Positions 12,362 through 59,088 of a DNA stretch of 64,000 nt are shown here, piece after piece (positions within the stretch are counted from its first letter, which is position 1; the number at the start of each line of letters is the position of its first letter). Where the stretch lies: the sequence record NZ_CP085281.1. One strand, written 5' to 3'. The position numbers and the translations under genes are program-made. The notes beneath the pieces are model-generated. The model was not told where the DNA came from, searched no databases, and was given only the letters and a program-made list of their open reading frames with translations. Source of the DNA: a plasmid.

Positions 12362-12381
12362 CCGGAGAAGACCACACCCCA

Positions 12382-12936: not shown

Positions 12937-12961
12937 ACCGCCGCCGACTACCGTGCGCTGC

Positions 12962-13740: not shown

Positions 13741-13874
13741 GCCGTTCGACGTTACCGCCGCCGACCGTAGGACAACGACACCAGTTTGACGCTGACCAAC
13801 CCGAGGAAACGCAGGACAAATACCCCCAGCGGCGGCGGGCATTCTGCCCCATATCCGCCGGTAGGTTCACTGTC

Positions 13875-33050: not shown

Positions 33051-33461
33051 TCAGCGGTTCCGCCCCGCGTGTTTTCGTGGCATCGGAACAACGACGTTGG
33101 TTCCGTAGGTTTCGTGCGTGAGTTCGGTGATCACCGCGGAAAGCGTTCTGATCTTGCTTCTCAGCTGAGCGTTTTCGGCAGCCAATTCCTGGTGGTGATG
33201 ACGGGCCTGTGCAAGTTGTCGTTGCAGTGCCTCGGCATTCGGAGCGACGGGTCCGCACCCGACCGATGCCTTGAACTCGTTCAGCAGGTCGCTGTGATGT
33301 TCGTAGAGTCTCTGCCGTGATATTCCGGATTCGTCAGCCAAGGCCACAATAGTGTGCGCTCCGTTGCTGCGCTCGGCTTGGTTTTCTCGGAGGCGGATCA
33401 TGGCGGCCTGGACCAGCAGTCGTTCCTCATCGTTACGGGTGGCTTTGCGCACGAGAGTCAT
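33051..33461 (-). CDS. small HTH plus coiled-coil protein (TnpC-like accessory protein of recombinase module 1)
   Basis: 'IVALADESGISRQRLYEHH' HTH, then coiled coil 'ELAAENAQLRSKIRTL'. ATGA overlap with upstream recombinase C at 33458-33461. Homologous to 52580..53200. Confidence 0.6.
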   Translation of the reverse strand: MTLVRKATRNDEERLLVQAAMIRLRENQAERSNGAHTIVALADESGISRQRLYEHHSDLLNEFKASVGCGPVAPNAEALQRQLAQARHHHQELAAENAQLRSKIRTLSAVITELTHETYGTNVVVPMPRKHAGRNR

Positions 33462-38882: not shown

Positions 38883-38919
38883 CCCCGGCCCCCTCGCCTC
38901 ACGAACATTGCCCCCATCA

Positions 38920-40590
38920 TCACCGACATACTTCCCCGAACGTCTTCGACACGCCTGTCGGGCAGAGAACAGGGGACTGGATGTTTCCAGGGCAGGTCAC
39001 TCGATCGAACCCGGCGATGGTGGTGGCGAAGGCCTGAGTGAGTGCCTGTTGGTCGGCGTAGAGGGTGTAGGTAGCGGTCTGCGGTCCGCCGGGGTCGGAG
39101 TTGGGCCCGCACTTCACTGAGGCCTGCGCTGAGTCGTCGCGTGCGGTGCAGCTGGTATCTGAATACCCCTTGGGCACAGCGTTTTTGACTCGCTGAATGT
39201 CTGCGTCGGATGGGTGGACTGGGGTGGGTGCGGCCGCCTGGCCGCTGCCAGAGTCCGAACCGGCGACGTTATATATGGCGATCGCGGTGAGGATGACGCC
39301 GATGAGGATGACGGCCGATATCGCGATGGCCTTCGTCGAGGGTGTCCGCCGGCTCCGTGTCGTGGGAATGATTTGCGGCCACGCGGTGTGCTGCGGGGGC
39401 ATGTGAGGTGCAGGAGCGGGACGTGCGGGTCTGGCGGCCGGGGGCCAGGACGACGGGTAGGTGGGCGCCTCGCTGTGGCGCGTCGGGGACGGTGCCGGCG
39501 TCCTGGTGGCGGCGGCGACGGAGTGATCGTGTCCTGGCGGGCCCTGGGGAGGCGTCGGTAGACGCGCTGGCCCGCTTGCGATGTCCGCGCCGACGTCGGT
39601 GGGTGCGGGGGGACGTGCTGTCGTCGCTGTTGGGATGGGGCCGGTGATCTCGCTGGCGTCGGGGGTGCCCGTGGTTGGTGGCTCGCTGGCCACGGTCGGG
39701 CTGCTCGGCGCGGGGGTGGCGGGCAGGGTTTCCGCGCGTGTGGTCGTGTCGACGTCGCCGGTGTTGGGCTCCGCTGCTGTCGCCGTGCGAGCCGGGGTTA
39801 TCACCAACTCGGGGGCCCCGGTTAGGTCTGCCGCGATGGGCGCCGGACTGGACACGAGTGCGGGTGCGGGTGTCGGCGCGGCGGGATCCGGGTCTGATTC
39901 GCCTTCTTCGTCGGCTGCGATGTGTTGCTCGCCAGGGCGGTCATCGCCGACCGGCGGCACACCCGCGGGCAGGGCCACGCCGTCCGGCTCGCCGGCCGGG
40001 TCCTGTGCGACGAGCGGATCGTGGGGGGGTGCGGATGGTGCCGCGACCGCTGTGCTGGCGGTGGTCTGCCCGGAGTTCGCTGGTAGGTCGTCGCGTCCGG
40101 GCTCGGGGATGCTGTCGTCAGGGAGGTCTTCGATAGTGGCGAGTGCAGGACTGCGCCCCTGGTCTGCGACGGCTTCTTCCGCGGTGGCGTCCTGGGGAAG
40201 GTCGTCGATATCGACGGCGGCGACGGGATGGAGCTTGGCGTAGTCGACGGTCTGGTCGTCCCAGTAGCTGAGGTCGAGGATGTAGGCCAGATCGACCGGG
40301 AAGCGCTGCATGCCGTGATGGGGAGCCTCACCGGGGGTGCTCGCGCGCATCACGATGTCGCTCACCCACAGGAACGGTCCCGAGTCGTCGAAGTCCAGGC
40401 GCTCGGTTGGGAACGTGGACGTATCGGTGCTCGCCTCGATGTGGTGCTTGAGCTGTCGGTCGAGTCGTGCCGAAAAGTACGTCTGCCCGTCCGGGCCCTG
40501 CCGAATGTCGACAGTCTCCCCGCCGAGGGGAAGCTGTCGGCGCAGGTCATCAGGGCCTACCCGGAGGTGGCTGATCGAGAACCGTGACAC
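38920..40590 (-). CDS. membrane protein: conserved N-domain (paralog of 13875..14834), long Pro-rich linker, TM helix, extracellular Cys-containing C-terminal domain
   Basis: GTG start at 40590 ('VSRFSIS...'), which aligns with 'MSRFVIQS' of the paralog. TM 'AIAISAVILIGVILTAIAIYNV'. The track ORF starts at 40731. Its stop lies 38 bp upstream of the recombinase A start. Confidence 0.6.
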   Translation of the reverse strand: MSRFSISHLRVGPDDLRRQLPLGGETVDIRQGPDGQTYFSARLDRQLKHHIEASTDTSTFPTERLDFDDSGPFLWVSDIVMRASTPGEAPHHGMQRFPVDLAYILDLSYWDDQTVDYAKLHPVAAVDIDDLPQDATAEEAVADQGRSPALATIEDLPDDSIPEPGRDDLPANSGQTTASTAVAAPSAPPHDPLVAQDPAGEPDGVALPAGVPPVGDDRPGEQHIAADEEGESDPDPAAPTPAPALVSSPAPIAADLTGAPELVITPARTATAAEPNTGDVDTTTRAETLPATPAPSSPTVASEPPTTGTPDASEITGPIPTATTARPPAPTDVGADIASGPARLPTPPQGPPGHDHSVAAATRTPAPSPTRHSEAPTYPSSWPPAARPARPAPAPHMPPQHTAWPQIIPTTRSRRTPSTKAIAISAVILIGVILTAIAIYNVAGSDSGSGQAAAPTPVHPSDADIQRVKNAVPKGYSDTSCTARDDSAQASVKCGPNSDPGGPQTATYTLYADQQALTQAFATTIAGFDRVTCPGNIQSPVLCPTGVSKTFGEVCR

Positions 40591-41166
40591 AGCGCAACCT
40601 ACCGCCGTGGCGACCGAGTCGGCGCGACCGTCGAGCGATCCGAGGCGATGTCGCCGTAACCGTGGAGAACGAGGCGGCGCTGATCTTCCAGCAGCACGTC
40701 GACCCACCCGATGCCCAGGCGTTCGGTGCAAATCTCGACACCGCGCACCGTGCTGCCGTAGTCGGGGAGGTAATCGCCTTCTTGCAGGTCATGCACGACG
40801 ATGACCTGAGTCGTCTCCGTATGCGGTGCACTCGCCGTGGGACGCTCTCCGAGAACGGTCATGGTGTCGGTCTCCTCTTCGAGCGCCGGCCGCAGTCAGG
40901 CCGATGGTTGGCGGCGTTGCATCCAGGCTATCGGCGCGTTTGGCTCACACAGCGTCTCGACCACCTTCGATTTCGACAGCGGTGGCGGCCAGGTTCACGG
41001 CGTTCTGAAACAGAATCCCCGGGGCCGCGATCCAGGTAGCCAGGAAATCCCTCGCGTGCCAACATCTGCAGCCGCCGCCCCGTGACATGGTCGACCATCG
41101 AATGGTAGTGAATGTTAATTCGCGGCATGTCTGTTAGCAGATGGGTGTACATGTTATTTATGGTGC

Positions 41167-45246: not shown

Positions 45247-46545
45247 CTATTTGAGGTTTCCGTTAGTGTCGGCGGAGACCAACCCTGGGTTTATGCGCAG
45301 TTCGCCACGACCGTAAGCGAGGTCGAGGGAACGCAACCGCGAGACGGCGTTGCGGAACCCACCTCCGGCGGGGCTGTACCCGGTCGCGTCGGCGATCTCG
45401 GCAATGGGTACGTCGCGATCCGGATTGTCCGCCAGATGACTCAGGATCATGCGCGGCGCCTTGTCGAGCTGCTCGGACCACCAGGTGATGAGCCCCGGGC
45501 CAGGTGCCGGCAGCCGTTCCCAGCTGCCCAGCGCGGCCCGTCCGGCGTCGGTGATGCTGATGTCACCGCGGCCCTCGATGAGGCCGGCGCTGCGCAGCGC
45601 CGATAGCGCGTTGCGGAACCCGCCGCCTTTATGGCTGCGCCCCGTCAACAGGGCCACCTGGTTGGTGCTCCGCTGCCCGTGCTGAGCCAGGACGGTGAGG
45701 ATTTGACGTTCGGCCAACCGGAGCCGGCCGTCACCGGTTCCCTCGCCGGCAGGCGCGGGCGTCACCGGCTCCTGTGCCGGCGGTTCGAGCCGCGCCGGCG
45801 GTGGGGACGTGTCGTGTTCCCTGGTCACGGCGGGTGGCGCGGCAGCCAAGGCGCGTTCGACGTTCGCCGCGGCCGCGCAGATCTGTTCACCGATCGCATG
45901 CAGCTGCGCGAGGGCGTCGGTGAGGGCCGCGAGGTCCTCTGGCGAGAGCACTGGCACTTCGACGCGCTGCACCTGGGCGGCGCGCGCTTGTTCGGCGGCC
46001 AGTTGTCGTCGTAGGTCTTCAATCTCGGCCTGGACGTGGTCCCCAGCCCCCGCTGGGGACGCGGGCTGCGCATCCTGGCCGTCGCCGGCGTCGAGCTGGC
46101 GGCGTAACCCGTCGACATCGACCGGTGCCAAGGTGGTGGCAGTGTGCCGGCGTGCTCCCGCCTTCGGTGTGGCGCTGGAGTCGAAAGTACGGCGCCGGCG
46201 GACGGTGATGTGCTGGGTGACGCCGAGCCACTCCGGCGACCACACCCAGGCTTGCCCGACCGGTAGCGACGGCAGGGATTGCCGGACTTCGCGGGCGCGT
46301 CCTTCCTCGGCGTGCTGGGCAACCCAGTCGCTGATGGTGTTGACGTCTTGGGGTGCGGTCACGCCAAGGGCGATCAGCGAGTCGATCTGGCTGAGTACCG
46401 TCTTGTGCAGTGCAGCCGCTCTTTGGCTGCAGAGCGTCACTCCGAGCCCTTTGACGCGGCCACGGCGCACGATGTCCTCTGTGGCCCCGAGGAGGCGCTC
46501 AATGCCTGCTGGTGCGCGCTGCGGCGCGAACTCGTCGGCCTCCTC
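45247..46545 (-). pseudogene. 3' portion of a disrupted HerA/DUF87-like ATPase gene with C-terminal tandem winged-helix domains
   Basis: Begins with Walker-B-like 'EEADEFAPQ'. Then 'RRGRVKGLGVTLCSQR' (sensor/Arg finger), 'LPVGQAWVWSP' and 'VRRRRTFD'. Two wHTH repeats each carry 'GGGFRNA(L/V)S.LRS'. The track ORF (to 46905) reads upstream across an inverted-repeat boundary into unrelated sequence. Confidence 0.55.
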
Positions 46546-47095
46546 AACTTTTCCGACCGGCTGCGCCATCAGAACCTTCTGTGACCAGGGCGGTAGTCGT
46601 CCCGAACATGTACGTATCGTCTTGTGCGGACCCGAGGCTGGCGCTCCACCAAATCTAAAGTCGGGACGGGTGTGACGGGCAGAAGTCGCGACCCTCAGAG
46701 TCCGAGACCCAGCCGCGAGCAGCGGCTCATCACGGGCCGGGTCGGCTGCTACCAGATCCACGTCCGTGGTGGCATTGCAGTCCAGTGAATCGCACTCGAT
46801 GAGTAGCCACTCATCCGACACGGGGTGGTCAGAAAGTTCCTCGCAGGATTCGTCGGCGCGATCTCCAAGCAAGGCGCGCTTGCGTTTTACGATCTCGTCT
46901 TCCACCTGCTCAGCGAGTTGAGCGAGTGTGGCTTCCGAAAGGTCGATAGGGGGCAGGTGCCGCAGGCCCTCAAATGCGCTCAGCCCTCTGTGGTCGGCGA
47001 CGACGAGTGCATGATCGGCTGCGTCGCAGTTTTATCGGTCATCTTCGAGATCTCCTTGTTCCGTAGGGTGCCCCAGGACCACCTGGCACGGGGCG

Positions 47096-47881
47096 TTAGG
47101 CATCGGCTATCAGCCTCATCCGGTATTCGTGGTCTGGATCGCATTCATTCTCGTGCCACCAGCAGTCGGTGATTCTCGTTGCGACTTCCGCGGTTTCGTA
47201 CCGGGATAGCGCCGCCCAGAGTCCATCACTCGTGTCGAGACTGCCGGAGCGGAACTGCAGCCCGTCACGCTGCCAGATCTGCATCGTCACCGCGCCCTCA
47301 CCGGCCGGTTGCAGGCGCGTTAGCCAGCGGCCACAGAGTGGCAGTTCGGTGCCTTGTACCGCGGTCACATCCGGGGTGCTGAGCGCGTCGGCCGCAGACG
47401 CGTCTATGCGGATCTTGAACAGCGAGCTCGCCGGAAGTTCGTTGACCTCGCAGGGGCATGCCCAGCACCCGTAGGGCTGGCCGTCGAAGTCGACGCCCCC
47501 GCCGTGGCTGAGCAGGTCATGTTCACAGCCTGGGTTGGGGCACAGCTCGTCGTCGTGGGCGTCGAGGCCATCCATATGCTTGGTCATGTCGTGCGGTAGG
47601 CCGCCCGTCGTGAATCCTGGACACAGGCATCCGTCGTCGGCGGCGGCGATGTGAGCTGCTCCCGGCCTTTCGCCGTCAAATGCTCCGGGCAATGTCAACG
47701 GCGCCGGCCCGGCGGCAATACAGCCCGCACCATCGACGGTGCTGAAGTGGGCATGTACGGAGTGCTTGCAGATCCAGCACCGCACCGTCTGCGCAGAGAC
47801 TCGGCCTTCTCCCATCTCAGAACACAGCCGGCCATAAAGCGCTCGTGCTTGTTCGGCGGTGCGAGGAACCTCATCCGTCAT
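47096..47881 (-). CDS. Cys/His-rich hypothetical protein
   Basis: ATG at 47881 with GAAGGGGA RBS. Several CxxC / HxH / CPC motifs (CWIC, CLCPGF, CPNPGCEH, CWACPC). The track ORF extends to 47932. Confidence 0.5.
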   Translation of the reverse strand: MTDEVPRTAEQARALYGRLCSEMGEGRVSAQTVRCWICKHSVHAHFSTVDGAGCIAAGPAPLTLPGAFDGERPGAAHIAAADDGCLCPGFTTGGLPHDMTKHMDGLDAHDDELCPNPGCEHDLLSHGGGVDFDGQPYGCWACPCEVNELPASSLFKIRIDASAADALSTPDVTAVQGTELPLCGRWLTRLQPAGEGAVTMQIWQRDGLQFRSGSLDTSDGLWAALSRYETAEVATRITDCWWHENECDPDHEYRMRLIADA

Positions 47882-47994
47882 GGTTGTCCCCTTCGCTGCG
47901 CGCGCTCGACGCTCGACCGGCTGTGTCGGCACCGGCCGGACGGTCCAACATCAGGCCTATGCCCTCGACGTCGTCGTCAGCTCGGACGTCACGC

Positions 47995-48327
47995 TCAGAG
48001 TGCTGTTTGAGGGTCCGTTTGCCATGCCGGGCCTCTCGTCAGCTCCTTGCATGAGATGTGTCGTGGCAGCACAGGATGTCCGCGAAATGCGTTGTAATCG
48101 GCGCGATCGAAGGCATCCGTATAGCTGTGCCCCGATGCGTAGAAGACTCCCAGGAACACTGCGTCGTCCTCTGCATCAGGCGATTGGTGTTCGTACGCCT
48201 CGCACCTGACGGTGACCATGGGATCTGCCCCCGCCGACGCGGCAAGCGCCAATGCTGCCGATAGCGCAGAAATCCCCACCACGCATCGCTGCGACAACAC
48301 CCGTCGGCGCACATGCTGTGTAGCCAT
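47995..48327 (-). CDS. small secreted protein
   Basis: Signal peptide 'VVGISALSAALALAASAGA'. Two Cys residues. Confidence 0.45.
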   Translation of the reverse strand: MATQHVRRRVLSQRCVVGISALSAALALAASAGADPMVTVRCEAYEHQSPDAEDDAVFLGVFYASGHSYTDAFDRADYNAFRGHPVLPRHISCKELTRGPAWQTDPQTAL

Positions 48328-48374
48328 CGTCAGACTCCGTTTCTCGTTACCCATTCCGGGACATCTCGATCGTG

Positions 48375-49148
48375 TCACGAGCTGGCTTCGACCGGCTTGT
48401 ACCTGATGTCGGCCAGAGGCAGGTCATCAGGATGCAGCAGCTCGCCGCGGTGCGCCTCGAACTCCCAACGCAGCGCGTCATAGGACTGCTGTCCGAAATG
48501 CCGCCCGATGTGTGGGCGCAAAGCCAACGCCACATACGGGTCCGTGGTGCCCATGCACTCCAGCCGGTCGAGTAACCAGCCGAATCCCCCAACACGCTGC
48601 AGGAGCTCGCAGGCCTTCTCAATCACGCCGTTGCGCCGGTCATCGAACAACTCCGGGCCATACTTGCCGAACAGGTTCGGGTCATACGTCTCGGAGCCGT
48701 ACAGACAGGCCACCTCGCGCAACCGCGAATACTCACGACGGGCTGGATCGATCAACCAATCCCGCAACAGACGATCCTCCACGGCGACATAGCGGCTCAT
48801 ATCTCCGTCCAATTCCCCGGTCTCGACCACTCGAATCGCACGGAACCCCGTCGGATTTCCCTGCCATACCTCCCATATATCGATATCGCACCACGGATAC
48901 TCATCAGGGTTGTCGTACAGTTCGAAAGGCTCCGGATCTGGCTCCCTCAACTTTTCGTTGGGCACCCAAACAACTCCCGGCGGGGCCGTCGCGATTTTCA
49001 GCAGTGCCTCCCGATACTTCTGCCCATCTGGGTCAATCACGAGCCACCTCGACGCATCCTGCCCCGACCCATCGACCACCAAATCCGAATGCGGACAACC
49101 CAATGCCTCCGCTACCGCTGCACCACCACCATGTTCCTGCATCGCCAT
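48375..49148 (-). CDS. hypothetical protein (~257 aa)
   Basis: ATG at 49148 with AAGGACG RBS. The track ORF extends to 49394. Confidence 0.5.
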   Translation of the reverse strand: MAMQEHGGGAAVAEALGCPHSDLVVDGSGQDASRWLVIDPDGQKYREALLKIATAPPGVVWVPNEKLREPDPEPFELYDNPDEYPWCDIDIWEVWQGNPTGFRAIRVVETGELDGDMSRYVAVEDRLLRDWLIDPARREYSRLREVACLYGSETYDPNLFGKYGPELFDDRRNGVIEKACELLQRVGGFGWLLDRLECMGTTDPYVALALRPHIGRHFGQQSYDALRWEFEAHRGELLHPDDLPLADIRYKPVEASS

Positions 49149-49179
49149 ATCGTCCTTTGGTTTTCGTACGGTCTGTGGA

Positions 49180-49722
49180 CTACGCGGCCATGTGGCCGAT
49201 GATCGTGGTGTCGTCTGCGCCGAACTGCCGGGCGCGAGCCTGGGCGAGGCGGAGCTTGCGCTGGACTGCCGGCAAGTCGGCGGGTGAGAGCCCGGGGTCG
49301 GTGAGCCGGCCGCTGAACACCGCGACATCGCGAAGGGCATGGTTGACGCTGTCACCGTGGATGTACGGACCGCAGCTCGAAATGCCGTTCTCACCCTCGT
49401 AGATACGAGCCCAGTCCCGCAGCTCGTCGACGTCCAGGCCGGAAGCTGCGTGGACTACGGCATCAACTGCTGTCTGGACGTGGCGCAGCTCGTCGATCGC
49501 TGGCTGACGAGCCGCGACCGCCCACACCGGGGTCGGGGTGGCGACGAGTCGCTTCGCCTCACGGGTCGAGACCCCCAACGCATCTGCGATCGTCTTGTCA
49601 TCGGCACCGTCGATCCGCAGTTTCTTCGCCATCGCTGTCGCGAGAAACTCGCCGCGGCGCTCAGCCCAGCGGGCCGCGGCCCGGGCGGCGCGCATCGCCT
49701 CGGAGTAGCTGCTGTACTCCAA
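49180..49722 (-). CDS. hypothetical protein (180 aa)
   Basis: Clean ORF, protein-like. Confidence 0.45.
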   Translation of the reverse strand: MEYSSYSEAMRAARAAARWAERRGEFLATAMAKKLRIDGADDKTIADALGVSTREAKRLVATPTPVWAVAARQPAIDELRHVQTAVDAVVHAASGLDVDELRDWARIYEGENGISSCGPYIHGDSVNHALRDVAVFSGRLTDPGLSPADLPAVQRKLRLAQARARQFGADDTTIIGHMAA

Positions 49723-49744
49723 CTCGGTCTCCTCTGCCTCGTAC

Positions 49745-50038
49745 CTATTCCGGACTGTCTTGTTGCTGAGATCCTGGTTCGTCCTCTATGGACGAACCAG
49801 AGGTACCGCATTCGACGTGTGCAGCGATCGCAGCATTCAAGACGTCGATACGTGCCATGTGGTGCTTGAAGTCGGCACCGTTCTCCTGGAAGCGCATCGC
49901 TAGCTCCGAAGCAGCCGTCGCGTGATGAGCGATGAGAGTCAGGATCTCCGAGAACAGCAAGCCTGGTGCCTCGTCGTTCTGAGCAGTCATGTCAAATCCT
50001 CTGCTGCGCTTTACGTTTTGTGAAATACGGCTCGCCAA
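49745..50038 (-). CDS. hypothetical protein (97 aa)
   Basis: Small ORF in the operon. Confidence 0.35.
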   Translation of the reverse strand: MASRISQNVKRSRGFDMTAQNDEAPGLLFSEILTLIAHHATAASELAMRFQENGADFKHHMARIDVLNAAIAAHVECGTSGSSIEDEPGSQQQDSPE

Positions 50039-50056
50039 CTAGGGCGCGCAGTCGCT

Positions 50057-50437
50057 CTACTTCATCCGCCAGACGATGAGCATGACCCGGCGCCGGAGGA
50101 TGACATCAGCATCTCCTACCGATCGCGGATCGTGTTCGCCCATACCGAAGCGCATTGCCATCGTGGTCGTCTTCGAGTACGCGACTCTGACGAGCCGATA
50201 TGTGAGCCAGACGAATCCCACAAGGGCGCCTAGAGCCATCACGGCCAGAACACGGCCAGCGGCGTTATCTAGCTGCGCGGCAACGCCAACCAACCAGGTC
50301 GATAGGCCAATACCGGCCCACAACGTGACCATTCCGGCACATAGTGCAGCGACAACGCCCAGCGCCAGCGCCCACGCGGCAACGTAGGGCAGTCGCGGAC
50401 TCCGCAGCCACCAGTCACGAGAACCGGAATCGCTCAT
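50057..50437 (-). CDS. hypothetical membrane protein (126 aa)
   Basis: Two or three predicted TM helices. Confidence 0.4.
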   Translation of the reverse strand: MSDSGSRDWWLRSPRLPYVAAWALALGVVAALCAGMVTLWAGIGLSTWLVGVAAQLDNAAGRVLAVMALGALVGFVWLTYRLVRVAYSKTTTMAMRFGMGEHDPRSVGDADVILRRRVMLIVWRMK

Positions 50438-50475
50438 ACACCCTCACCCAAGCCTTTCGCTATGCCGATACTCAG

Positions 50476-51333
50476 TCATCCGCGTGCCTGGCCACCCCAC
50501 CACCAGAGGGCGTTACCGACATGGTGTGGTCCGGGGTGCCCGTCAAAAAGCATGCACGGGGAGGTCGGCGATAAGTCGTCCCTGGACAGCGGGAGCTCCA
50601 ATGGGCAGTCGGGTTCTCGCCGGAACTCACGCAACGAATGAGTGTCGTCCCACACCAGCCATGTTTCATGACCGTCCCCAACGTTCTGGACCGGGTCATA
50701 GTGGGGTCCAGCGTGGCCAGCGGCAAGATTGCACCGCCCCCACAGTCGCGCGGGGTACTCGCCGCCTGGTGTGCTGTCGATAGAGCGCCGTTCCTGAGCG
50801 GTAATCTCCACTGTCTCTGCACACGTCTTCACCGCTGGCCACTCAGAGTCTGGATCATCTGGCTGCCTGCTGCGCGCACGCTCACGGTGCCCAATCGAAT
50901 CCTCTCCCAGGACTTCCAAGGTCTGTTCGACCGGGTCGAGGACTCGGCCCAGTAACTCGTGAGGTGTCGCACGCTGATCTTCAGGCAAGTCATTGATGTA
51001 GACCTGGAAATCGCCCAGCGCCCGCACCGCGCGAATGAGATGCGAACTGACGTGGTTCAGGGTCAGCACCCGCCCCAACTCGCTGGCACCCTCGTTGACA
51101 AAGACTCCTCGACCATGTTGAGCACTGACGAGTCCCTCCGACCGCAACTGCTGAATCGCCTGCCTCACAGTCATGCGCGCGACACCGAAATGCTTCATCA
51201 GCTCGACCTCAGACGGAATCCGCTCACCAGGCTGACACTCGCCCCCACCAATCGCGTCTCGCAACTGGTCGGCGATCTGCCGGTACGGGGGACGATCACT
51301 TATACGGTCGATAGCACCGAGAGCGATCCTCAT
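50476..51333 (-). CDS. GntR-family transcriptional regulator
   Basis: N-terminal GntR wHTH 'PPYRQIADQLRDAI..G....GERIPSEVELMKHFGVARMTVRQAIQQLRSEGLV'. Confidence 0.65.
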   Translation of the reverse strand: MRIALGAIDRISDRPPYRQIADQLRDAIGGGECQPGERIPSEVELMKHFGVARMTVRQAIQQLRSEGLVSAQHGRGVFVNEGASELGRVLTLNHVSSHLIRAVRALGDFQVYINDLPEDQRATPHELLGRVLDPVEQTLEVLGEDSIGHRERARSRQPDDPDSEWPAVKTCAETVEITAQERRSIDSTPGGEYPARLWGRCNLAAGHAGPHYDPVQNVGDGHETWLVWDDTHSLREFRREPDCPLELPLSRDDLSPTSPCMLFDGHPGPHHVGNALWWWGGQARG

Positions 51334-51408
51334 CCGAACTCCTTTGCACTAGTGGCTAATTCGGCACCGATCGGGGATCGCCACCGACTTCGCCGCGCAG
51401 CATCGTGG

Positions 51409-51615
51409 TCATTTCTGAATCACTCTGCCCGGAACGTAGATTCCGCGCCCGGTCATCGACTCCACGGCTTCCCCCACCGCGTCATCGATCGAGTCGTACG
51501 CGAGCGTGTTTCCTAAGCCAATCGTTTCGAATTCCCCATCGTGTATCTGCCGTTCGAGCTGATAGGAAATCCGGTACACCTCTTTCGGCGACTCCTGCTG
51601 CGCCATCACAACCAC
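51409..51615 (-). CDS. hypothetical small protein (68 aa)
   Basis: Small ORF upstream of the GntR gene. Confidence 0.3.
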   Translation of the reverse strand: MVVMAQQESPKEVYRISYQLERQIHDGEFETIGLGNTLAYDSIDDAVGEAVESMTGRGIYVPGRVIQK

Positions 51616-51710
51616 CCTTCTCTCTTGGTTCTGTGCGCAGAGTAATCCGGTGCACCGACAACCTCCCGCGCTCTCGACATCAGGAATCGTATCACTAATC
51701 GCTACGTTAT

Positions 51711-52223
51711 GTGTCAGTTTCCGCTACGCTACGCAGTATGGGTAGGTACGCCACATCCACCGACGTCGCACCCGACCGGTCGCGCAGCGAGATTGAACGC
51801 ACGCTGCAGCGTTACGGAGCGCGCCAGTTCGCCTATGGGTGGGATGAGAACCGTGCGATGCTCGCGTTCGTCGCCAACGGTCGCCAGGTCCGGTTCGTGC
51901 TGCCACTGCCGGATCGCGACGCGCCGGAGTTCACCAAGACGCCAACGGGCAGGGACCGCTCGGCGAGCGCGGCCAACGAGGCATATGAGCAGGCGGTGCG
52001 GCAGCGTTGGCGTGCACTCGCGTTGGTGATCAAAGCCAAGCTCGAGGCTGTCGACACGGGGATTGTGGACTTCACCAGCGAGTTCCTTGCCCACCTAGTG
52101 TTGCCCGGCGGTGGCGGCGAGACGGTCGGCGAGGCCGTGGTGCCGCGTATCGACGAGGCGTACCGAACAGGCGAACCTCCGGATCTGTTGCCGGCGTTCG
52201 CGCCGCGGGCGCTTCCTCAATGA
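51711..52223 (+). CDS. hypothetical protein (170 aa)
   Basis: Clean ORF. Stop overlaps the start of the next gene. Confidence 0.45.
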   Translation: MSVSATLRSMGRYATSTDVAPDRSRSEIERTLQRYGARQFAYGWDENRAMLAFVANGRQVRFVLPLPDRDAPEFTKTPTGRDRSASAANEAYEQAVRQRWRALALVIKAKLEAVDTGIVDFTSEFLAHLVLPGGGGETVGEAVVPRIDEAYRTGEPPDLLPAFAPRALPQ

Positions 52224-52534
52224 GCCCACGGCGTCGGGGCACGGTTCCCGAGCCGCAGCGGACGCAGCTTCACGATGCTCACCGCACCGCCCAGACAGCC
52301 AGTGCCGAGCTGCGCCGAGCGGTCTGGGCTGCCTATCAGGCCGGTGCGTCGATTCGCGAGATCGCAGGTGAGCTTGGCATGTCCACCAACACGATCCAGC
52401 AGTGGATGAAGCTGGCGCGGGCGCACGACGCAGAATCGGCCGCGACGAGGATGGGCGTCGGCCCCGATGACCAGCATGGAGCTTCAGGCGTTCACGGTGC
52501 CGGATCTGACAAATGCTCGCCGCGCGACTCGTGA
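52220..52534 (+). CDS. small HTH DNA-binding protein (~105 aa)
   Basis: 'ASIREIAGELGMSTNTIQQWMK' helix-turn-helix. Confidence 0.45.
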   Translation: MSPRRRGTVPEPQRTQLHDAHRTAQTASAELRRAVWAAYQAGASIREIAGELGMSTNTIQQWMKLARAHDAESAATRMGVGPDDQHGASGVHGAGSDKCSPRDS

Positions 52535-52579
52535 TCGACGCTGAGAACGGTCCGCTGAGGTCCACACCGGTCTGGGCGC

Positions 52580-53200
52580 TCAGCGGATGTCTGGGGCCGT
52601 CCCATGGGTGTTCGTTGCCGGGTCGAGCAGTTGTGTTTCGAGGTCGGCGATGCGTCGGTCGAGGAAGCGGTTGTTGGAGCGGGCAGCTGCGAGTCGTTCG
52701 GTGAGGGTGGCGTGGTCCTCGGTGAGCTGTCGTATCCGTTGGCGCAGTGCGGTGTTCTCACTGACGAGGTGTTGCTGGCTCTCTGGTGACCAGGTTTGTT
52801 CGAGATCGCGAATCTGGCCCATCAGCTCGCCGATGCGTTGCCGCTGCCGCTGAATTTCAGCGTTGGTGGTAATGAGCGCTGCTTCGGCGTTGAGCGCGCG
52901 TTCGCGCCATCCCGAATCTGTGGTCCCCGTCGTCGCTTCGGGCGTACCACCGCCCGGGGCGGCGGTTTCGTTGGTGCGGTCGCCGGTGGCGGCGCGGACC
53001 AGTGCACGGGCCCGCGGATTTTCGTAGAGAAAGGTTCGGGACACATTGGCCTGATCAGCGATCGCCCGAGCGGTGATTGGTAGCTTGCGGCGGCGCATTC
53101 GCCGGATTGTGTCGTCGACGCGGGCGACAAGCTGGTCGGCGCGCGCCCGTCTGGCCTTGACTGCCGCGTCGGTACGGGCAGATCCGGTGGTGGCGGTCAC
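52580..53200 (-). CDS. small HTH plus coiled-coil protein (TnpC-like, module 2)
   Basis: 'ITARAIADQANVSRTFLYEN' HTH. Coiled coil 'ENTALRQRIRQLTEDHATLTERL'. GTGA overlap with B'. Homolog of 33051..33461. Confidence 0.6.
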   Translation of the reverse strand: MTATTGSARTDAAVKARRARADQLVARVDDTIRRMRRRKLPITARAIADQANVSRTFLYENPRARALVRAATGDRTNETAAPGGGTPEATTGTTDSGWRERALNAEAALITTNAEIQRQRQRIGELMGQIRDLEQTWSPESQQHLVSENTALRQRIRQLTEDHATLTERLAAARSNNRFLDRRIADLETQLLDPATNTHGTAPDIR

Positions 53201-55806
53201 GCGAGCTCCTCGGTCGGCACGGTGTCGTCGGCGTCATCGAGCTGGGCGAGTTCCTGTGCGCGGAACGCGGTGGCCCACATGCGGTTGAGATAGTCCTGGG
53301 GTCGGCGCATGTCGAGGGCGAGGGCTTCGTCGAGCAGTCCGACTGCGGAGAGCGCTTTTTCGAGTCCGTCGATGGCTTTGTTGGTCGGTTCGAACACCTG
53401 GTGCAGGTAGTCGGCGGTGGCGTCATCAGGTGCTCGTTCGGCGATCGAGCGCCACTGTTCGCGTTTGCGGCGCCAGTACAGCAGGTCTGCTCCGGACAGG
53501 ACGAACTTGTCGCAGTTGTGGCAGTCGAGGTTCCACGGGCACGCGTGGCCGTGGACGACCGGTTGGAAGGTGCAGAAGCCGCCTTCGGCGGGTGTGGAGC
53601 GTCGCGATAGGTCTAGAGCAAGAGCTTGGGCGTCAGTGCGGGTGAGGGTGGTGGTGCCGGCGGAGAGCACCTCACCAGGATGGGGCGCGGCGGGACCGGC
53701 GACCCAGACGTGCTGCAAGATGTCCTCGATGTCGCTGAGCGAGGCCTTCGCGTACCGCTCAGCCATGCGGGGTGAGATCTGGCCGAGGTAGCGCTGGATG
53801 TGGTGCAGCGGCGCGCCGTGGCGCAACAGTTTGGTGGCCAATGTGTGCCGGGCCTGGTGGGTGACGTAGTTGCCACCGAGATCAAGGCTGTCGACCCAGA
53901 GCCGAAACGACCGGGAGTACCACGGGTAGCCCATCGAGGCGGTGCCGTCGGAGTTGCGGAAGTTCGACGGGAACAGTGCCATCTTGTGCCGGTCGCGCGG
54001 TGCGGGTTCGTGACCGTGGTGTTGGACGTACTTCGCGATGGATTTGCGGCGGCGTGTTTCGATCAGCTCGTACACCGATTCGGGAATGCGGATAGCGGTG
54101 TCGTAGTTGCCCACCTTGGTTTGGTCGTGCCAGAGCAGCGGCAGGTCGTTGTGGCGGCCAGTGCAATCGAGGCGCAGTTTGAGCACCTCGTTGGCACGCC
54201 GGCCGGTGGCGATGATGATCGTCCACGCGTCGCGGATGCCGACGTCGTTGGGATCGTAGGCAGCAAGCGCCTGTAGGTTCTGCTCGTCGGCGAGCTGCTG
54301 AGCGACATGGTCGGGGAACGGCCGACGCGCTGGCGACGGCTGGGTGCCGCCGTAGGGTGCGGCGACGATAAATGATCGTGGGATGGCCAGGGTATCCGCG
54401 GCGCCGGTGTCGAGCGCCCACCGCAGAATACGGCGCACACTGTTGAGCGCTTGGCTGCTAGTCACGGTGGTGACGGTGCTGGGTTGTCCGTCGCCGCGGT
54501 GAATGCCCAGCGAGGGCAGACCGTGCTTGACCCGGTGGCGCTGGTCGGCGACGAACCGCTGCATGTCGACTTCGCCCAGCTGAGTCGGGTCGTGACCTCC
54601 ACCGACGGCGTCGGTTTCGAGGAAGGCGCTGAGTTCGACGACGCCGCGGCGCAGCCCATCGATCGGGCCTGCGGTAGCGGGCGGGCTGGGCGCTTGCAAA
54701 AGATCGGCAAGATAGTCCCACAACAGGTTTCGTAGCCAGGGCTGGCTGGCGCCGCGGAGATTGAAGTGGCTACCGCGGTTGGTGTAGCGGATGCCGAAGT
54801 GCTCGGTCTCCAGGAAGCCGGCCTCACGCGTGTCGGCGCGGGTGAAGTACACCAGCCGCAGCTCACCAAGCATCTCGCGGGCGACATGCTTGCGGGGGCT
54901 TCTCTTGCCAGCGTCGAGAACGTCGAGGTCCAGGTCGACCAGCGAAACAAGGTCATGCTCGCGACAAGCATTGGCCAGTGCCTGCACGTATTGCAGATCC
55001 CAGCGGGCCCGGCGCCCTTCGGTGTGCCGATACATACCCCACCGGATCTCGGCCGCGACCAAGGGCCGGAGGCCTAGCAGGTTCACCTGACCGCGCACAG
55101 GATGCGGTTCGACGGTGGCGCACCAGTGGTCGAACGCCGCGCGGTCCTCGCAGCGCAGCGGTGCGCGCTTTCCCTTGGCTTCGTAGCCCATCAGCCACCG
55201 GCCCGGCAGATGCGCGCCGCCGGGCCGGCCGACACGTTTGTAGATGGCGCCGTGCCACCGGCACAAACCGAGCGGGGACTGCGCCAGCTCGGGGCAGCAG
55301 ACGACTCGGCATTCCCCATAGCCGGGAAGCGCGTGCTGCGTGGGCAACCAGTCATCGAGGGTCAGTTCGGGATGGCGCTGCAACGCAAACCGGAACCGTT
55401 CGGAGTGCTGCAGGCACAGCCCGTTCTCCGATCGACGCGCGGGGCGTTCGGGGCAGATCCGACACATCCGTTCATCGGGTGGCAACGCGACCTTGATTGG
55501 TGTTGCGGCAGCGACGAATTCGGGGCGGTTGCCGCCCCGGTCGCGATGGCGCAGCCATTGCTTGTTGTGTTGGTTGCAGAGTTCGTTGCCGTTGGCGCGG
55601 GCAGCTTCGCACTCGGTGACTACGCATCGCCAGCCGAACACCGGATGCAGTGGCGGGAAGCGCAAGACGTCATCCCGAAACACGGGATCGACGCTGGGGC
55701 CCGACAACAGTGTCGTCAGCAGTTCGTGGCGATCGCGGACCTGCCGGCCGGGCTGGTCGATGCGCAGCGGCCACATGCTGTCACCCCATTGGGCGGGCTT
55801 GCTCAT
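53197..55806 (-). CDS. large tyrosine recombinase with N-terminal triple zinc-finger region (TnpB-like, module 2, ~869 aa)
   Basis: Three CxxC...CxxH units N-terminally. Catalytic motifs 'ATGRRANEVLKLRL', 'HQARHTLATKLLRHG' and 'HHIQRYLGQ'. C-terminal 'CPWNLDCHNC'. ATG at 55806 overlaps the A' stop (ATGA). Confidence 0.75.
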   Translation of the reverse strand: MSKPAQWGDSMWPLRIDQPGRQVRDRHELLTTLLSGPSVDPVFRDDVLRFPPLHPVFGWRCVVTECEAARANGNELCNQHNKQWLRHRDRGGNRPEFVAAATPIKVALPPDERMCRICPERPARRSENGLCLQHSERFRFALQRHPELTLDDWLPTQHALPGYGECRVVCCPELAQSPLGLCRWHGAIYKRVGRPGGAHLPGRWLMGYEAKGKRAPLRCEDRAAFDHWCATVEPHPVRGQVNLLGLRPLVAAEIRWGMYRHTEGRRARWDLQYVQALANACREHDLVSLVDLDLDVLDAGKRSPRKHVAREMLGELRLVYFTRADTREAGFLETEHFGIRYTNRGSHFNLRGASQPWLRNLLWDYLADLLQAPSPPATAGPIDGLRRGVVELSAFLETDAVGGGHDPTQLGEVDMQRFVADQRHRVKHGLPSLGIHRGDGQPSTVTTVTSSQALNSVRRILRWALDTGAADTLAIPRSFIVAAPYGGTQPSPARRPFPDHVAQQLADEQNLQALAAYDPNDVGIRDAWTIIIATGRRANEVLKLRLDCTGRHNDLPLLWHDQTKVGNYDTAIRIPESVYELIETRRRKSIAKYVQHHGHEPAPRDRHKMALFPSNFRNSDGTASMGYPWYSRSFRLWVDSLDLGGNYVTHQARHTLATKLLRHGAPLHHIQRYLGQISPRMAERYAKASLSDIEDILQHVWVAGPAAPHPGEVLSAGTTTLTRTDAQALALDLSRRSTPAEGGFCTFQPVVHGHACPWNLDCHNCDKFVLSGADLLYWRRKREQWRSIAERAPDDATADYLHQVFEPTNKAIDGLEKALSAVGLLDEALALDMRRPQDYLNRMWATAFRAQELAQLDDADDTVPTEELA

Positions 55807-56978
55807 GTCAGCCCCCACGTCTTGCGCAACGCCGCGTCGAAAACCGGATCGTGCAGATCGGCGTGTGCGTACACCTCGTCGACTGTGGTCGTCGAGGACC
55901 AGCCTCCGGCGTCGCGGGTGACCACCAGGTTGCCACCGGACGCATCAAGGACGGCGGTGGCGAAAGAGTGCCGGAACATGTGCGGCCGGATCCGGCCCAG
56001 ACCCGCGCGGGCACCGGCGCGGCGCAGGACCGCCCGGGCGGCGTCGGGCGCCCATGCAGCGCCGATGTCGTCGCCGTCGAGCTGGACGAGCAGCATGCCG
56101 TGCTCATCGACGACCGCACGGGCGCGTTCACCGGTGACGTAGTCGAAGTAGGTGTGGATCATCGCAGGGCTGACCCGTTTAATCAGGCCGCCGGTGACCG
56201 TGCCGTCCTCGATCGTCCATGGCAGCTTCGTCTTCGCCCGTGCGCCGTTCGGATTGGCCGGGCGGTCGCAAACGTGTACGTGTGGCGATCGGCAGCCGCC
56301 GCACTCCGCACCGTCGCGCAAGTGCAGGTCCATCAGGTGCAGTCCGCACAACTCGCCGATACGGAACCCTCCGTCACATAGCCAGGCCACTACAAGCCGG
56401 TCCCGCGCGGTCCGCACCACCTGTTCCAATTTCGGGCGCGCCCCGTCGGGCAGCATCTTGGGATGGCGCCGACGAATCGACTTCGGCGCCAAGGGATTCG
56501 CGCGCACGCTGGTGGTCACGTGGCCGAGCATCGATCGTTCCCGGTCCGCTCGCGTCGGTAACCGCGTTTGGTCGAGTTCACGGCCCAGCTGCGGGCAGGA
56601 TCCGAGCACTGCGTGGTGCAGGTAGTAGCCCTTGAGGCACGCTGCAGTTGTCTGCAATGCACTGTTGCCGTAGGGACGCTCCCGCCAAGCGAGGCCGTGC
56701 GGGCCGGAGATCTTTGCGCCGACAGCCCCCATGTACCGGCGCAGGTCGCGCACGCTGATCGATTCCAGGTTCAAGCCTTCACGTGCGCACCAGCGCAGAT
56801 GATCGACCAGGTGGTACGCGTACGTGCGTTGCGTGGTGGAGCCGTCGAACTGTCGCAAAAACCCATCCGCGGGCTCGTGCACAGTGCCGTCCGGCCACAC
56901 GATCGTGAACGATCGCCACCCACCCCCGCGGTGCAAGGGCTGAACGCGTAGATCATCGACAATCGCGCGACGAGCCAT
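55803..56978 (-). CDS. tyrosine recombinase (TnpA-like, module 2)
   Basis: 'RIGELCGLHLMDL', 'HMFRHSFATAVL' and 'VDEVYAHAD' catalytic motifs. 'RTYAYHLVDHLRWC' core-binding region. Start is uncertain (ATGs at 56978, 57020 and 57056; the track ORF extends to 57398). Confidence 0.7.
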   Translation of the reverse strand: MARRAIVDDLRVQPLHRGGGWRSFTIVWPDGTVHEPADGFLRQFDGSTTQRTYAYHLVDHLRWCAREGLNLESISVRDLRRYMGAVGAKISGPHGLAWRERPYGNSALQTTAACLKGYYLHHAVLGSCPQLGRELDQTRLPTRADRERSMLGHVTTSVRANPLAPKSIRRRHPKMLPDGARPKLEQVVRTARDRLVVAWLCDGGFRIGELCGLHLMDLHLRDGAECGGCRSPHVHVCDRPANPNGARAKTKLPWTIEDGTVTGGLIKRVSPAMIHTYFDYVTGERARAVVDEHGMLLVQLDGDDIGAAWAPDAARAVLRRAGARAGLGRIRPHMFRHSFATAVLDASGGNLVVTRDAGGWSSTTTVDEVYAHADLHDPVFDAALRKTWGLT

Positions 56979-57182
56979 CTCCGTCCTCCCCGGGTTAGCA
57001 ACCGTGTCGACGGGCAGCATTGCACCGGGCACCGACAACACGCGAAAAGCGCACATAGCTCCGATCGCGAATGCGAGCGTCGTTTGATCGCGAAATTCAG
57101 CGTCCGTCGTCAACTCGAATTGGCTCCAGTTGGGCGGTGCGAAGTGGCCCCACCTGGAGCCGGGTAGGGGGATGCTGGAGGG

Positions 57183-57545
57183 GTGGACGACGACGCGCTG
57201 CGTGAGGCGTTGATCGCGAAAGCGGCAAGCGATCTCGCGCAGTTGTTGACGTGGACCCGCGCCGAGCGGGCGCTGCGCGGTGATGACGATAAGCACGCCG
57301 CCTGGCTCGATGAGTTGCTCATCGGCCTGGAGCCGTTGGCCGAAGGTGTCGATGATGTGCAGACATCCATGGTGATGCGCCGGGTAGTGCAGCAGCATGG
57401 CGGGGAAGGCCCGTGGTCGATCGAGGATATGGCCGCGATGACCGGCCGCGATGCAAAGTCAATCGAGCGGGTGGTGGCTGGCCTGACCGAAGCCGGCGTG
57501 GCCTGCCCCGTCACGCCACCAGACGGTGATGATGAGTCGTCATGA
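57183..57545 (+). CDS. hypothetical protein (120 aa)
   Basis: ORF divergent from A', overlapping its long N-terminal extension. Uncertain. Confidence 0.3.
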   Translation: MDDDALREALIAKAASDLAQLLTWTRAERALRGDDDKHAAWLDELLIGLEPLAEGVDDVQTSMVMRRVVQQHGGEGPWSIEDMAAMTGRDAKSIERVVAGLTEAGVACPVTPPDGDDESS

Positions 57546-58087
57546 TGGCCGGAGAGCACCACTCGCGGACGAAACTGCGGAATTTATACCAGATTTCATA
57601 CCAGCCAGCGGCGCCACGCTCCGACGGTCCAGCCCGGAAGGCACGTCATTGACCAGGCAGTGTTCCGGTTTCTGCACAAAATGCTGAGGGGTCGGCACCA
57701 CATCTGCTCGACTCCCGGGCCATTCCATTCCGGCGTCGCTCCCTCCCCTAAGCTCAGGCGCGCAGTGCGCTCGGGGCAGACGCGCCACCCACGAGCTCGT
57801 CGAGTGCTTGTGAGACGCGCGGGCAAAGGCCGCGGTGGTGGTGTGCTTGCCGGCGGATATACATGACGATGTCTGCTTCGTCGCCAGCGAGCGCCAGGCG
57901 GGCGAGGTGGACTAATACCTCCCCGTCAACTGATTCGCTCTTCCACTCGCCCGCCGCACTACCTGTTGACATGCCCTTTTCCGTTCATTCCGAGTGGACT
58001 ACTTCGCCGCCAGATTCATGCGAGTCGCCCAGTCCTGTGTCTCATCGTCCTGCCGCTGCTGCGGACACGCCGATGTCGAGCACGGTC

Positions 58088-58264
58088 CTATGTCAGGTTG
58101 CGGTCGAGTGCGGCCCGGATCAGTCGTGCATGGTCGCCGTCGCCCCAGGGCTGGATCAACTCCCGAATCTCACGCACCGCACGCTCTAGTTTCTGCTCGC
58201 GAGTGAGCGGCACCGCCGCACCCCGTTGACCGCCGAAATACTTGTTCATATCGTAAAACTCCAT
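58088..58264 (-). CDS. small protein (58 aa) with strong RBS
   Basis: 'GGAAGGAG' lies 7 nt upstream of the ATG at 58264. The track ORF extends further upstream in the same frame. Confidence 0.5.
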   Translation of the reverse strand: MEFYDMNKYFGGQRGAAVPLTREQKLERAVREIRELIQPWGDGDHARLIRAALDRNLT

Positions 58265-58433
58265 TTCACAACTCCTTCCATCGAGTGCTGGTGGCTTCCA
58301 ACAGAGCGGGATCGAGTCCAGTCGACGGCTCCCAAGGTCGCACGTGGCGAACACGGTCGGTTAAGGAGTCCGCCGGACGGTTGAGAAGGACCGCGACGAA
58401 CGTGGCGAACACCGTTCAGCGCGGTCGGTAAAG

Positions 58434-58822
58434 TCGATGATCAGGTGCAGGGGTTCGCGGTTGCGCCAGTACAACGTCTCCAGGAAGTCTGCGGCGAAGG
58501 ATCTACGTTCGGCCTTCCGCATCAGCGATAAGTCGAGTACGACCGGGAATCGCTGTTGGGCAACCAGTTCGGCGACGACTGCACCTTGGTTGGGACGCAG
58601 GGCGATGTCGGCGTGGTCGCCACCGAGGATGATGACGGGGAATCCCGCTTCGCGTCCGTCGGCGGAGGAACGCAGTCCGTGCCAGACGCCGGTGGGGTCG
58701 ATGACGCAGATTAGGCAGCCGGCGTTCATCAGTTCTTCGGCCAGTACCGAGGCGGTGTGGGTCTTACCCCGGCCTTTCTTGCCCAGGATGGCGAAGGTGG
58801 CGGTCACACTGTCCACGGGCAT
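58434..58822 (-). pseudogene. 5' portion of the disrupted HerA/DUF87-like ATPase gene (Walker A)
   Basis: 'ILGKKGRGKTHTASVLAEELMNAGCLICVIDPTGVW', 'ILGGDHADIALRPNQ' and 'VVLDLS...FAADFLETLY' are DUF87/HerA-like. Ends at '...EPLHLIID', after which the reading frame enters the inverted repeat and terminates. Confidence 0.55.
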
Positions 58823-59088
58823 GGTGAAGTCGTCGGCCAGCGCAATTCGCGGCGCTAGCTCGTTCCCGCGTCCGGTGTCTGTCATATCTGTGCCTGTATC
58901 GGTTGACCTGCTCTGATCGGGCTTGCCGTCTTCGAGTATGCCCGGCATTGGGGTGCCCGAGCGGGTCCGCCGCGGCATGAGTTGTCTCCATCTGGCCGTC
59001 GGCGCCCCGCCGGCGCGGGCGCATCCGTCATGCCTACGGCGCGCGACCGCTGAGCAGGCGTGACGGCATGTCCCGCCAGCCACTTGGG

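Follow-up and report, generated by a model that had tools for sequence, protein, structure and literature searches.

The stretch of Mycobacterium avium plasmid DNA analyzed here (64,000 nucleotides of sequence record NZ_CP085281.1, referred to throughout as the window) contains a gene for a HerA/DUF87-like ATPase that runs on the minus strand from 58885 to 45247 and is broken by an insert of 11,890 bp at 46543..58432. We propose, with a probability of roughly 90%, that this insert is a transposon from the actinobacterial subclass of the Tn554 family, one that is active and specific for site and orientation. The N-terminal fragment of the ATPase (58433..58885, minus strand) begins with an ATG at 58885, contains the Walker A motif GKKGRGKT, aligns with residues 1-151 of the intact homologs P0001 and P0002, and ends ...REPLHLIID with the codon GAC at 58435..58433. 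Its sequence up to the junction is ...YWRNREPLHLIID, after which unrelated sequence follows, and its frame enters the element for 29 codons before reaching a stop at 58361. The C-terminal fragment (45247..46542, minus strand) starts at GAGGCC (46542 downward), ends at 45247 and encodes EADEFAPQRAP..., a HerA_C-like sequence and two repeated winged helix-turn-helix (wHTH)-like units, in agreement with the tandem winged helices noted in an earlier reading of this DNA from its letters alone (the sequence-only reading). Joined, the two fragments encode a protein of 582 residues that matches the Pfam families DUF87 and HerA_C and is 93-94% identical to the full-length homologs P0001 and P0002 (581-589 residues), while P0014, a plasmid protein of 440 residues from M. 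avium subsp. hominissuis, is 100% identical to the C-terminal part. All of the intact homologs read LHLIIDEADEFAPQ at the junction, the ancestral Walker B being LHLIIDEADEF. By falling between Walker A and Walker B, the insertion truncates this conserved ATPase, which loses Walker B and everything downstream of it.

The limits of the insert come from DNA in which the site is empty, taken from Logan/NCBI contigs of metagenome-assembled genomes at ~89% nucleotide identity. In four of these (L001-L004) the site reads CTGATCATCGAC/GAGGCCGACGAGTTC (ATCGAC/GAGGCC, the slash marking the junction), and over the stretch 33732 to 64000 the window aligns colinearly, at 82-90% nucleotide identity, with L001, a Mycobacterium sp. 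contig that encodes P0002, with alignment blocks that abut and a sole interruption at window 46546..58432. A search of PLSDB with the reconstructed empty site gave a nearest intact gene of 81.6% identity and no near-identical empty backbone. Because the empty-site DNA fixes both edges, the insert, which is missing from L001, is exactly 46543..58432. The sequence-only reading had claimed that one HerA-like gene, with both fragments on the minus strand, was split by a mobile element, and the intact homologs and the empty site confirm this; the uninterrupted ATPase that it expected in a related genome is the intact gene of L001 with its colinear flanks. Its details at the junctions have to be revised, however, in that it had placed the insert at 46546..58433, had counted once a TC/GA dinucleotide that the empty-site comparison shows to be neither shared nor duplicated, and had given the Walker B as EEADEF where the native form is DEADEF, the first E being encoded by the last 3 bp of the insert (GAG), which happen by chance to be in frame.

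The complete insert is made up of an 11,884-bp transposon and a carried hexamer of 6 bp, and on the HerA sense strand the order is left arm, second site copy, ~1.3 kb of DNA, tnpA, tnpB, tnpC, cargo, right arm and GTTGAG. At the left, tnpA-proximal junction the native target hexamer ATCGAC (58433..58438, minus strand), which holds the Ile-Asp codons of the Walker B strand and matches the empty site of L001-L004, is kept and is followed by the left terminal arm TTTACCGACCG (58422..58432, minus strand), a putative recombinase core-binding site that is retained as TTT(A/T)CCGACC in 64 related loci. The extended left site (58400..58432) includes GTTCGCCACGT, and the left-end site is directly repeated in subterminal position as TTAACCGACCGTGTTCGCCACGT (58342..58364, minus strand), 68 bp in from the end. 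The right terminal arm CGGTCGGAAAA (46549..46559, minus strand) is the inverted partner of the left arm and is retained in relatives as GGTCGG(A/T)AA(A/T). It is followed by the carried or “brought-in” hexamer GTTGAG (46543..46548, minus strand), which is the native left-flank hexamer of the HerA site occupied in plasmid pS2b, described below, and not that of the window site. No target duplication was found on comparing the empty ATCGAC/GAGGCC with the occupied site, which reads ATCGAC, the insert ending in GTTGAG, and GAGGCC. The two 11-bp arms match in inverted orientation at 10 of 11 positions, for which the arithmetic gives ~1e-5 by chance, the ends having been set independently by the empty site, and the same arms are present in more than 60 related elements. 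The imperfect inverted terminal repeats of the sequence-only reading hold, including their presence at other copies, except that the leading “C” of its repeat strings is flank or carried-hexamer sequence.

The three core genes of the element are co-oriented on the minus strand and overlap directly, tnpA and tnpB by 4 bp with no gene between them. The product of tnpA (55803..56978) is a tyrosine recombinase of 391 residues with the R...HxxR...Y signature (GFRIGE, HMFRHS and EVYAH; Pfam Phage_integrase, E=8.5e-15), that of tnpB (53197..55806) is a tyrosine recombinase of 869 residues with the Phage_integrase match in its C-terminal half and with core-binding and catalytic domains (TGRR, HQARHT and ERYAK), and that of tnpC (52580..53200) is a protein of 206 residues that matches Pfam DUF6262 (E=1.3e-9) and has an N-terminal helix-turn-helix (HTH)-like domain and a coiled coil. 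What had been described from the letters alone as a tnpA/tnpB/tnpC-like trio of tyrosine recombinases is indeed a tnpABC set, of which only two members are tyrosine recombinases, the third being the DUF6262 protein. A tblastn search with TnpB reached plasmids of Staphylococcus and Enterococcus, and in the E. faecalis plasmid pW208 (L089) Tn558 (tnpA-tnpB-tnpC-fexA) lies in a JAB/RadC gene and has a TnpC annotated as DUF6262. TnpA is 23% identical to Tn558 TnpA over its full length (E=8e-22), TnpB is 28% identical to its counterpart over the last ~155 residues, including HxxR, Tyr and the conserved Cys cluster (E=9e-13), and TnpC is 29% identical over 69 residues (BLASTP, E=3e-7). The catalytic R, HxxR and Y align with those of Tn558 in both recombinases, as does the four-Cys cluster that lies past the catalytic Tyr in the C-terminus of TnpB (53512..53574, codons 749-769 of the 873-residue ORF).

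[quoted passage not shown] The window element differs from the family in being hosted by a Mycobacterium plasmid and not by Bacillota, in targeting the Walker-B codons of HerA-like ATPase genes and not radC, and in its cargo, which is without recognizable resistance genes; in a table of 2023 the hosts named for Tn554-related elements are Staphylococcus and Enterococcus only (PMC10214605). Compared with Tn558 specifically, TnpB has 869 residues instead of 637, with three N-terminal CCCH motifs that are not alignable, and TnpC has 206 residues instead of 121. Actinobacterial transposons related to Tn554 were defined by Van Houdt et al. (2012, Mobile DNA 3:6; PMC3414803), and the sections of that paper on which we draw describe a class with an abnormally long (>600 residues) and a normal (~350-390 residues) tyrosine recombinase and a TnpC-like third gene, found in Mycobacterium (including M. 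avium), Rhodococcus and Streptomyces, where its members reside on plasmids and on chromosomes. These sections give gene families and occurrences and do not give ends, targets or hexamer behavior. With its proteins of 869, 391 and 206 residues on an actinobacterial replicon, the window element is a member of the class as described there, and TnpB homologs of 52-59% identity are abundant. It differs from the common minimal form of the class, which is ~4.63-4.7 kb, in its length of 11.9 kb with cargo and in an extra 1.3 kb at the left.

Of the alternatives to membership in the Tn554 family, the one that survives best, and that we nevertheless consider very unlikely, is that the insert is a strand-biased circularizing integrative element (SE) or a GInt-type island, these being four-gene tyrosine-recombinase elements that copy 6 bp of left flank into the circle. 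[quoted passage not shown] Indeed, SEs have imperfect inverted termini of 13-19 bp, deposit a 6-bp left-flank spacer at the new right end and use few preferred targets. Imperfect inverted termini together with a 6-bp footprint have been reported for Tn554 as well as for SEs (PMC10214605), and the model in which 6-7 bp of the donor left flank are carried to the right end (“att-brought-in” or footprint) is described in PMC12486829 and PMC10214605. This alternative is disfavored in that SEs have four core genes with tfp between the recombinase genes whereas the window element has three (PMC10214605), the defining fourth gene (tfp/ginC, encoding a catalytically dead recombinase-like protein that lacks RHRY) is missing, and the window proteins match Tn558 directly. 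SE genes and GInt genes are reported to have no sequence similarity, and the SEs reported so far all come from Gammaproteobacteria (PMC10214605). Membership in the SE or GInt groups was rejected on the lack of a tfp/ginC-like gene between tnpA and tnpB.

The assignment to the Tn554 family is strengthened by a second copy of the element on the M. avium plasmid pS2b (NZ_CP076860.1), where it lies among other neighbors between fragments annotated “DUF87 domain” and “ATP-binding protein”. The reconstructed pS2b target is a different HerA paralog, ...RNRDPLHLLVE/EADVLIPQ..., and intact orthologs on M. vanbaalenii and M. alvei plasmids (RDALHVVIE/EADVLIP) support this reconstruction. The window and pS2b copies are 100% identical over 11,884 bp, the three differences in the 11,890-bp insert all lying in the terminal hexamer, and their flanks are too diverged for megablast to extend. 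In the window the junctions read ATCATCGAC/TTTACCGACCG... on the left and ...CGGTCGGAAAA-GTTGAG/GAGGCCGAC on the right, and in pS2b CTCCTCGTTGAG/TTTACCGACCG... and ...CGGTCGGAAAA-ATCGAC/GAAGCCGAC. Specifically, the window copy has ATCGAC as its left flank and carries GTTGAG while the pS2b copy has GTTGAG as its left flank and carries ATCGAC. A third copy (L006) lies in a HerA gene of 80% identity with different downstream genes and has the right-end hexamer GTTGAG, and a fourth (L093) lies in another HerA gene with the left flank ...RNRDPLHVVID/, so that the further copies in different contexts for which the sequence-only reading had called are now at hand, and four HerA-like genes are occupied, all at one Walker-B codon and with the element in one orientation. 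Since an identical element is present in diverged targets, transposition has been recent, repeated and site-specific. The window copy itself appears, from the hexamer that it carries, to have come from a site with the left hexamer GTTGAG, such as the pS2b HerA paralog.

These copies also bear on a second alternative, that of a single ancient insertion in one HerA gene that spread to paralogs by homologous recombination or gene conversion with no active transposition. Such a history would account for the fact that every occupied HerA site is at the homologous codon of homologous genes, but it is very unlikely, as it needs identity in the flanks and these are too diverged for megablast next to an element that is 100% identical over 11,884 bp. 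In addition, the right-end hexamer switches exactly as the “brought-in” model of Tn554 has it, and relatives of the element occupy unrelated gene families.

The third alternative is the one that the sequence-only reading had favored, namely an undescribed composite or a new transposon class bounded by terminal inverted repeats, for example of the DDE type or the RIT type with a 2-bp GA target duplication. It is prompted by the 10/11 match of the inverted termini and by the “GA” on both sides of the insert, and rested on the premise that Tn554-type elements are not known to have terminal inverted repeats, which is at odds with the imperfect inverted termini reported for Tn554 and SEs (PMC10214605). 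Short inverted termini make up a tyrosine-recombinase core site (arm, 6 bp, inverted arm) once they are joined, and therefore the argument for a new class fails. The “GA” belongs to two different hexamers, ATCGAC and GTTGAG, that are accounted for by the donor and target sites, and the termini are common to a large family already linked to Tn554. A DDE-type insertion sequence or composite transposon was rejected, there being no match to a DDE or other transposase family among the element's open reading frames (ORFs) and no duplication. RIT elements resemble the window element in having adjacent, overlapping tyrosine-recombinase genes within inverted repeats, but they have three catalytic recombinases (RitA/B/C) of 315-410 residues and terminal repeats of 34 bp (PMC10214605) whereas the window element has two recombinases, a non-recombinase DUF6262 protein and arms of 11 bp; RIT membership was likewise rejected, as only two proteins have an integrase domain. 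With all three proteins homologous to those of Tn558/Tn554 and the actinobacterial class defined in 2012, a new class is highly improbable, and both the empty-site DNA and the second copy refute it. The last alternative, that of an assembly artifact or of two HerA paralog fragments that never formed one gene, has nothing beyond a priori possibility in its favor and is of negligible probability, being refuted by the joined ORF, a full-length one with 94% identity to intact proteins, which also disposes of the separate-paralog objection of the sequence-only reading, and by the right junction of the window copy, which is present in independent assemblies (P0014 in DRR286178), with equivalent junctions in the complete plasmid pS2b.

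Several points weigh against an active Tn554-family transposon. Identity to the Firmicute proteins is low (23-29%), and TnpB can be aligned with Tn558 TnpB over only its C-terminal ~155 residues. In the AlphaFold2 (AF2) model of TnpB (mean predicted local distance difference test score, pLDDT, 78.8) the C-terminal two-thirds have a Cre/XerH/IntI-like core-binding and catalytic fold, and Foldseek against PDB gave generic Cre/Xer/IntI/Tn1549-Int matches to these two-thirds only; the N-terminal ~340 residues have a confident fold to which Foldseek found no PDB match, and no counterpart was identified. The parent and daughter order of the copies cannot be read from the reciprocal hexamers, and ATCGAC also ends other HerA genes (L093, L001). 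Joined ends, as a circular or tandem junction, were found neither in the window nor in any related locus compared, and the right-end 23-mer of the element had 0 matches in the JGI metagenomes. Mobility is inferred from comparative data only.

We now put forward a hypothetical mechanism for the element that follows the literature on Tn554 and SEs. The recombinases would act on the 11-bp inverted arms at both ends, with the second left-end site lying 68 bp inside, and recombination of end with end would give a circle whose junction consists of the right arm, 6 bp copied from the donor left flank and the left arm. This junction would then recombine with a target whose central hexamer consists of the two codons that end a hydrophobic strand plus Asp/Glu; in the window these would be the ATC-GAC codons of the HerA Walker B, after which comes GAGGCCGAC, with no target duplication. 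The proposed intermediate is thus a circular double-stranded form that contains the donor left hexamer, strand exchange would occur at the edges of the hexamer, and TnpC would have a helper role. The proposal makes no choice, from these data, as to which protein binds which site or as to copy-out versus cut-out. It should be noted that the N-terminus of TnpB contains three tandem CCCH motifs (55252..55626; codons 65-189 of the 873-residue ORF) that are invariant in 57 homologs, namely C65/C70/C81/H84, C119/C122/C135/H138 and C170/C175/C186/H189 in the numbering of that ORF. We speculate that these motifs might read the target or the second left-end site, and also that the CCGAC found both in the left arm (TTTACCGACCG) and in the HerA right half-site (GAGGCCGACGA) might contribute to the choice of site.

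The wider family was examined by a TnpB profile scan of one genome per species, which gave at least 278 relatives, of which 80 loci were kept, many of them 4.6-4.8-kb repeat contigs that hold the element alone. The end motifs, the 68-bp internal repeat and the 6-bp right-end hexamer are common to 64 loci whose TnpB is 52-57% identical. At the left end TTT(A/T)CCGACC recurs 66-70 bp further in (66 left ends), the right end is GGTCGG(A/T)AA(A/T) plus six bases, and the elements range from 4,627 bp, with tnpABC only, to ~9.8 kb among those with confidently paired ends. In 21 of 37 elements the carried hexamer is not the same as the native one. The codon that directly precedes the element is Asp in 29 and Glu in 19 of 58 distinct left flanks, the native hexamer has the consensus sTsGAs, and T is found at -11, -8 and -5 in 36, 36 and 35 of 40 sites, with G at -3 in 35 and A at -2 in 38. 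In a control that took all NTNGAS hexamers in the same flanks, 31.5% were in an open frame after at least three hydrophobic codons of four, compared with 38 of 38 observed sites, many of which are homologous and hence not independent. The reconstructed targets are TniB and AAA_22 ATPases cut at hhhhD/E.H, a DExH-type helicase (VVVD/ELH), NucS-like nucleases (VVVE/YKRG, the ExK motif), HAD-like proteins (LLLDVD/GPL, the DxD motif), an ATP-grasp protein (WWFLE/CNP) and an HD-domain protein (KIAD/NAHN), and a minority with different hexamers lie in Mu-type transposases (EWVVAV/WQTRPH). Disrupted genes come very often from other mobile elements, as with plasmid HerA genes and transposon tniB/tniA.

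As a lead from these comparisons, insertions of the family appear to follow (NTN)3-GAS codons, which encode motifs with a hydrophobic strand and Asp/Glu such as the Walker B of HerA, TniB and AAA_22, and the HerA Walker-B site of the window element would be one instance of this family habit. We go further only tentatively in suggesting that the actinobacterial Tn554-like family homes to (NTN)3-GAS as a degenerate, codon-phased signal and thereby lands in active-site motifs, in an unrecognized form of mobile-element-on-mobile-element targeting, with the CCCH fingers of TnpB as the likely reader. A literature search, which was not exhaustive, found no prior description of the target pattern and, on DUF6262 or on where actinobacterial Tn554-like elements end and insert, nothing beyond Van Houdt et al. 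(2012). Two observations on individual loci are added here. In a Streptomyces contig (L012) two related tnpABC elements, at 1828..7424 and 8706..13927, lie ~1.3 kb apart, one in a gene for a Mu-type (tniA-like) transposase and the other in the Walker B of an adjacent TniB-like ATPase, and these two interrupted genes may belong to one host transposon. Beside Tn558 in pW208, the truncated JAB/RadC gene (L089, 3063..3520) ends just past the codons for the HNHPSG(D) metal-binding motif, such that the Firmicute relative likewise lies within a stretch coding for a catalytic motif, the end of Tn558 being approximate.

The significance of these results is that vaguely annotated integrase, integrase and DUF6262 genes on clinical M. 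avium plasmids become a defined and evidently active transposon, with exact ends, target and orientation and an exact natural before/after record in the case of the window element. The “brought-in hexamer” behavior of Tn554 is extended to Actinobacteria, with unusually clean natural evidence from outside Bacillota. The end motifs (TTTACCGACC ... GGTCGGWAAW+6) permit automatic delimitation of hundreds of related elements and the repair of split ATPase, tniB and nuclease “pseudogenes”, and the codon-phased hhhD/E preference is a testable rule for the choice of conserved sites by a tyrosine-recombinase transposon.

The remainder of the insert consists of the extra DNA at the left and the cargo. 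The extra ~1.3 kb between the left-end sites and tnpA (56979..58341) has no equivalent in the minimal relatives, where tnpA is ~130 bp from the end, and contains a 58-residue ORF (58088..58264, minus strand), whose GGAAGGAG Shine-Dalgarno sequence is strong, and a 120-residue ORF (57183..57545, plus strand). The cargo block (47096..52534) has about 12 genes on both strands. On the minus strand these include a GntR regulator (50476..51333, E=6e-22), a small membrane protein (50057..50437), a signal-peptide-like ORF (47995..48378), a Cys/His-rich ORF with 14 C and 11 H (47096..47881), and ORFs of 65, 81, 180 and 257 residues that match no family. The GntR, Cys/His-rich, secreted and small, strongly translated ORFs pointed out in the sequence-only reading are present as sequence features. 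An overlapping pair on the opposite, plus strand (51738..52534) resembles a phage-derived module carried by the transposon and consists of a gene at 51738..52223 that matches phrog_17260 (function unassigned in PHROGs) over its full length (E=3e-70) and an HTH gene at 52220..52534 that matches the HTH DNA-binding phrog_5497 (E=3e-21). GntR and these two phrogs are the only family matches in the cargo, and PADLOC, NCBIfam and Pfam gave no defense, resistance or metabolic assignment beyond GntR and HTH. The nearest distinct relative of TnpB (P0122, 87% amino acid identity) is on an ENA metagenome contig (L007, 9420..12519), in a 5'-truncated, frameshifted remnant that has neither tnpA nor recognizable ends and is uninformative on targets; this remnant is flanked by two ORF fragments with G6PD_C domains and adjoins barstar- and ribonuclease-like genes.

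Within the right end of the element (46560..46575 region) there is an ATG (46569..46567), preceded by GAAGG, that is in frame with the HerA C-terminal fragment as well as with the right arm and the carried hexamer, and annotation pipelines therefore call a C-terminal protein of 440 residues, which is a predicted ORF only. The deposited proteins of 440 and 452 residues (P0014 and P0024) start MAQPVGKVE, P0014 beginning MAQPVGKVEEADEF, and an ATG at the corresponding position is absent from the right ends of the minimal relatives examined. In PADLOC the interrupted ATPase matches “mad8” of the MADS defense system over nearly its full length (E=9.5e-15), and it scores as a generic HerA; candidate roles are DNA translocation, conjugation and defense. 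In the intact relative (L001, 1..1975 region) the HerA-like gene is ~8 kb from a gene for a 1,559-residue protein with methyltransferase and helicase domains. The HerA locus could be a defense island rather than one with a transfer or partition function; for the ortholog of the pS2b-type paralog on the M. alvei plasmid the PGAP annotation is that of a type IV coupling-protein-like ATPase.

Two further features of the window lie outside the insert. At 33458..40731 on the minus strand are four large tandem ORFs (603, 502, 594 and 762 residues) whose ends overlap or closely abut, and in which the sole family match is a Phage_int_SAM_1 domain in the 502-residue protein. This block may be another recombinase-based module, and because it is conserved in L001 it is part of the backbone and not of the transposon. 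Also on the plasmid backbone, at 31023..32474 on the plus strand, is a gene for a homolog of the AurF-type p-aminobenzoate N-oxygenase (Pfam AurF, E=5.5e-81).

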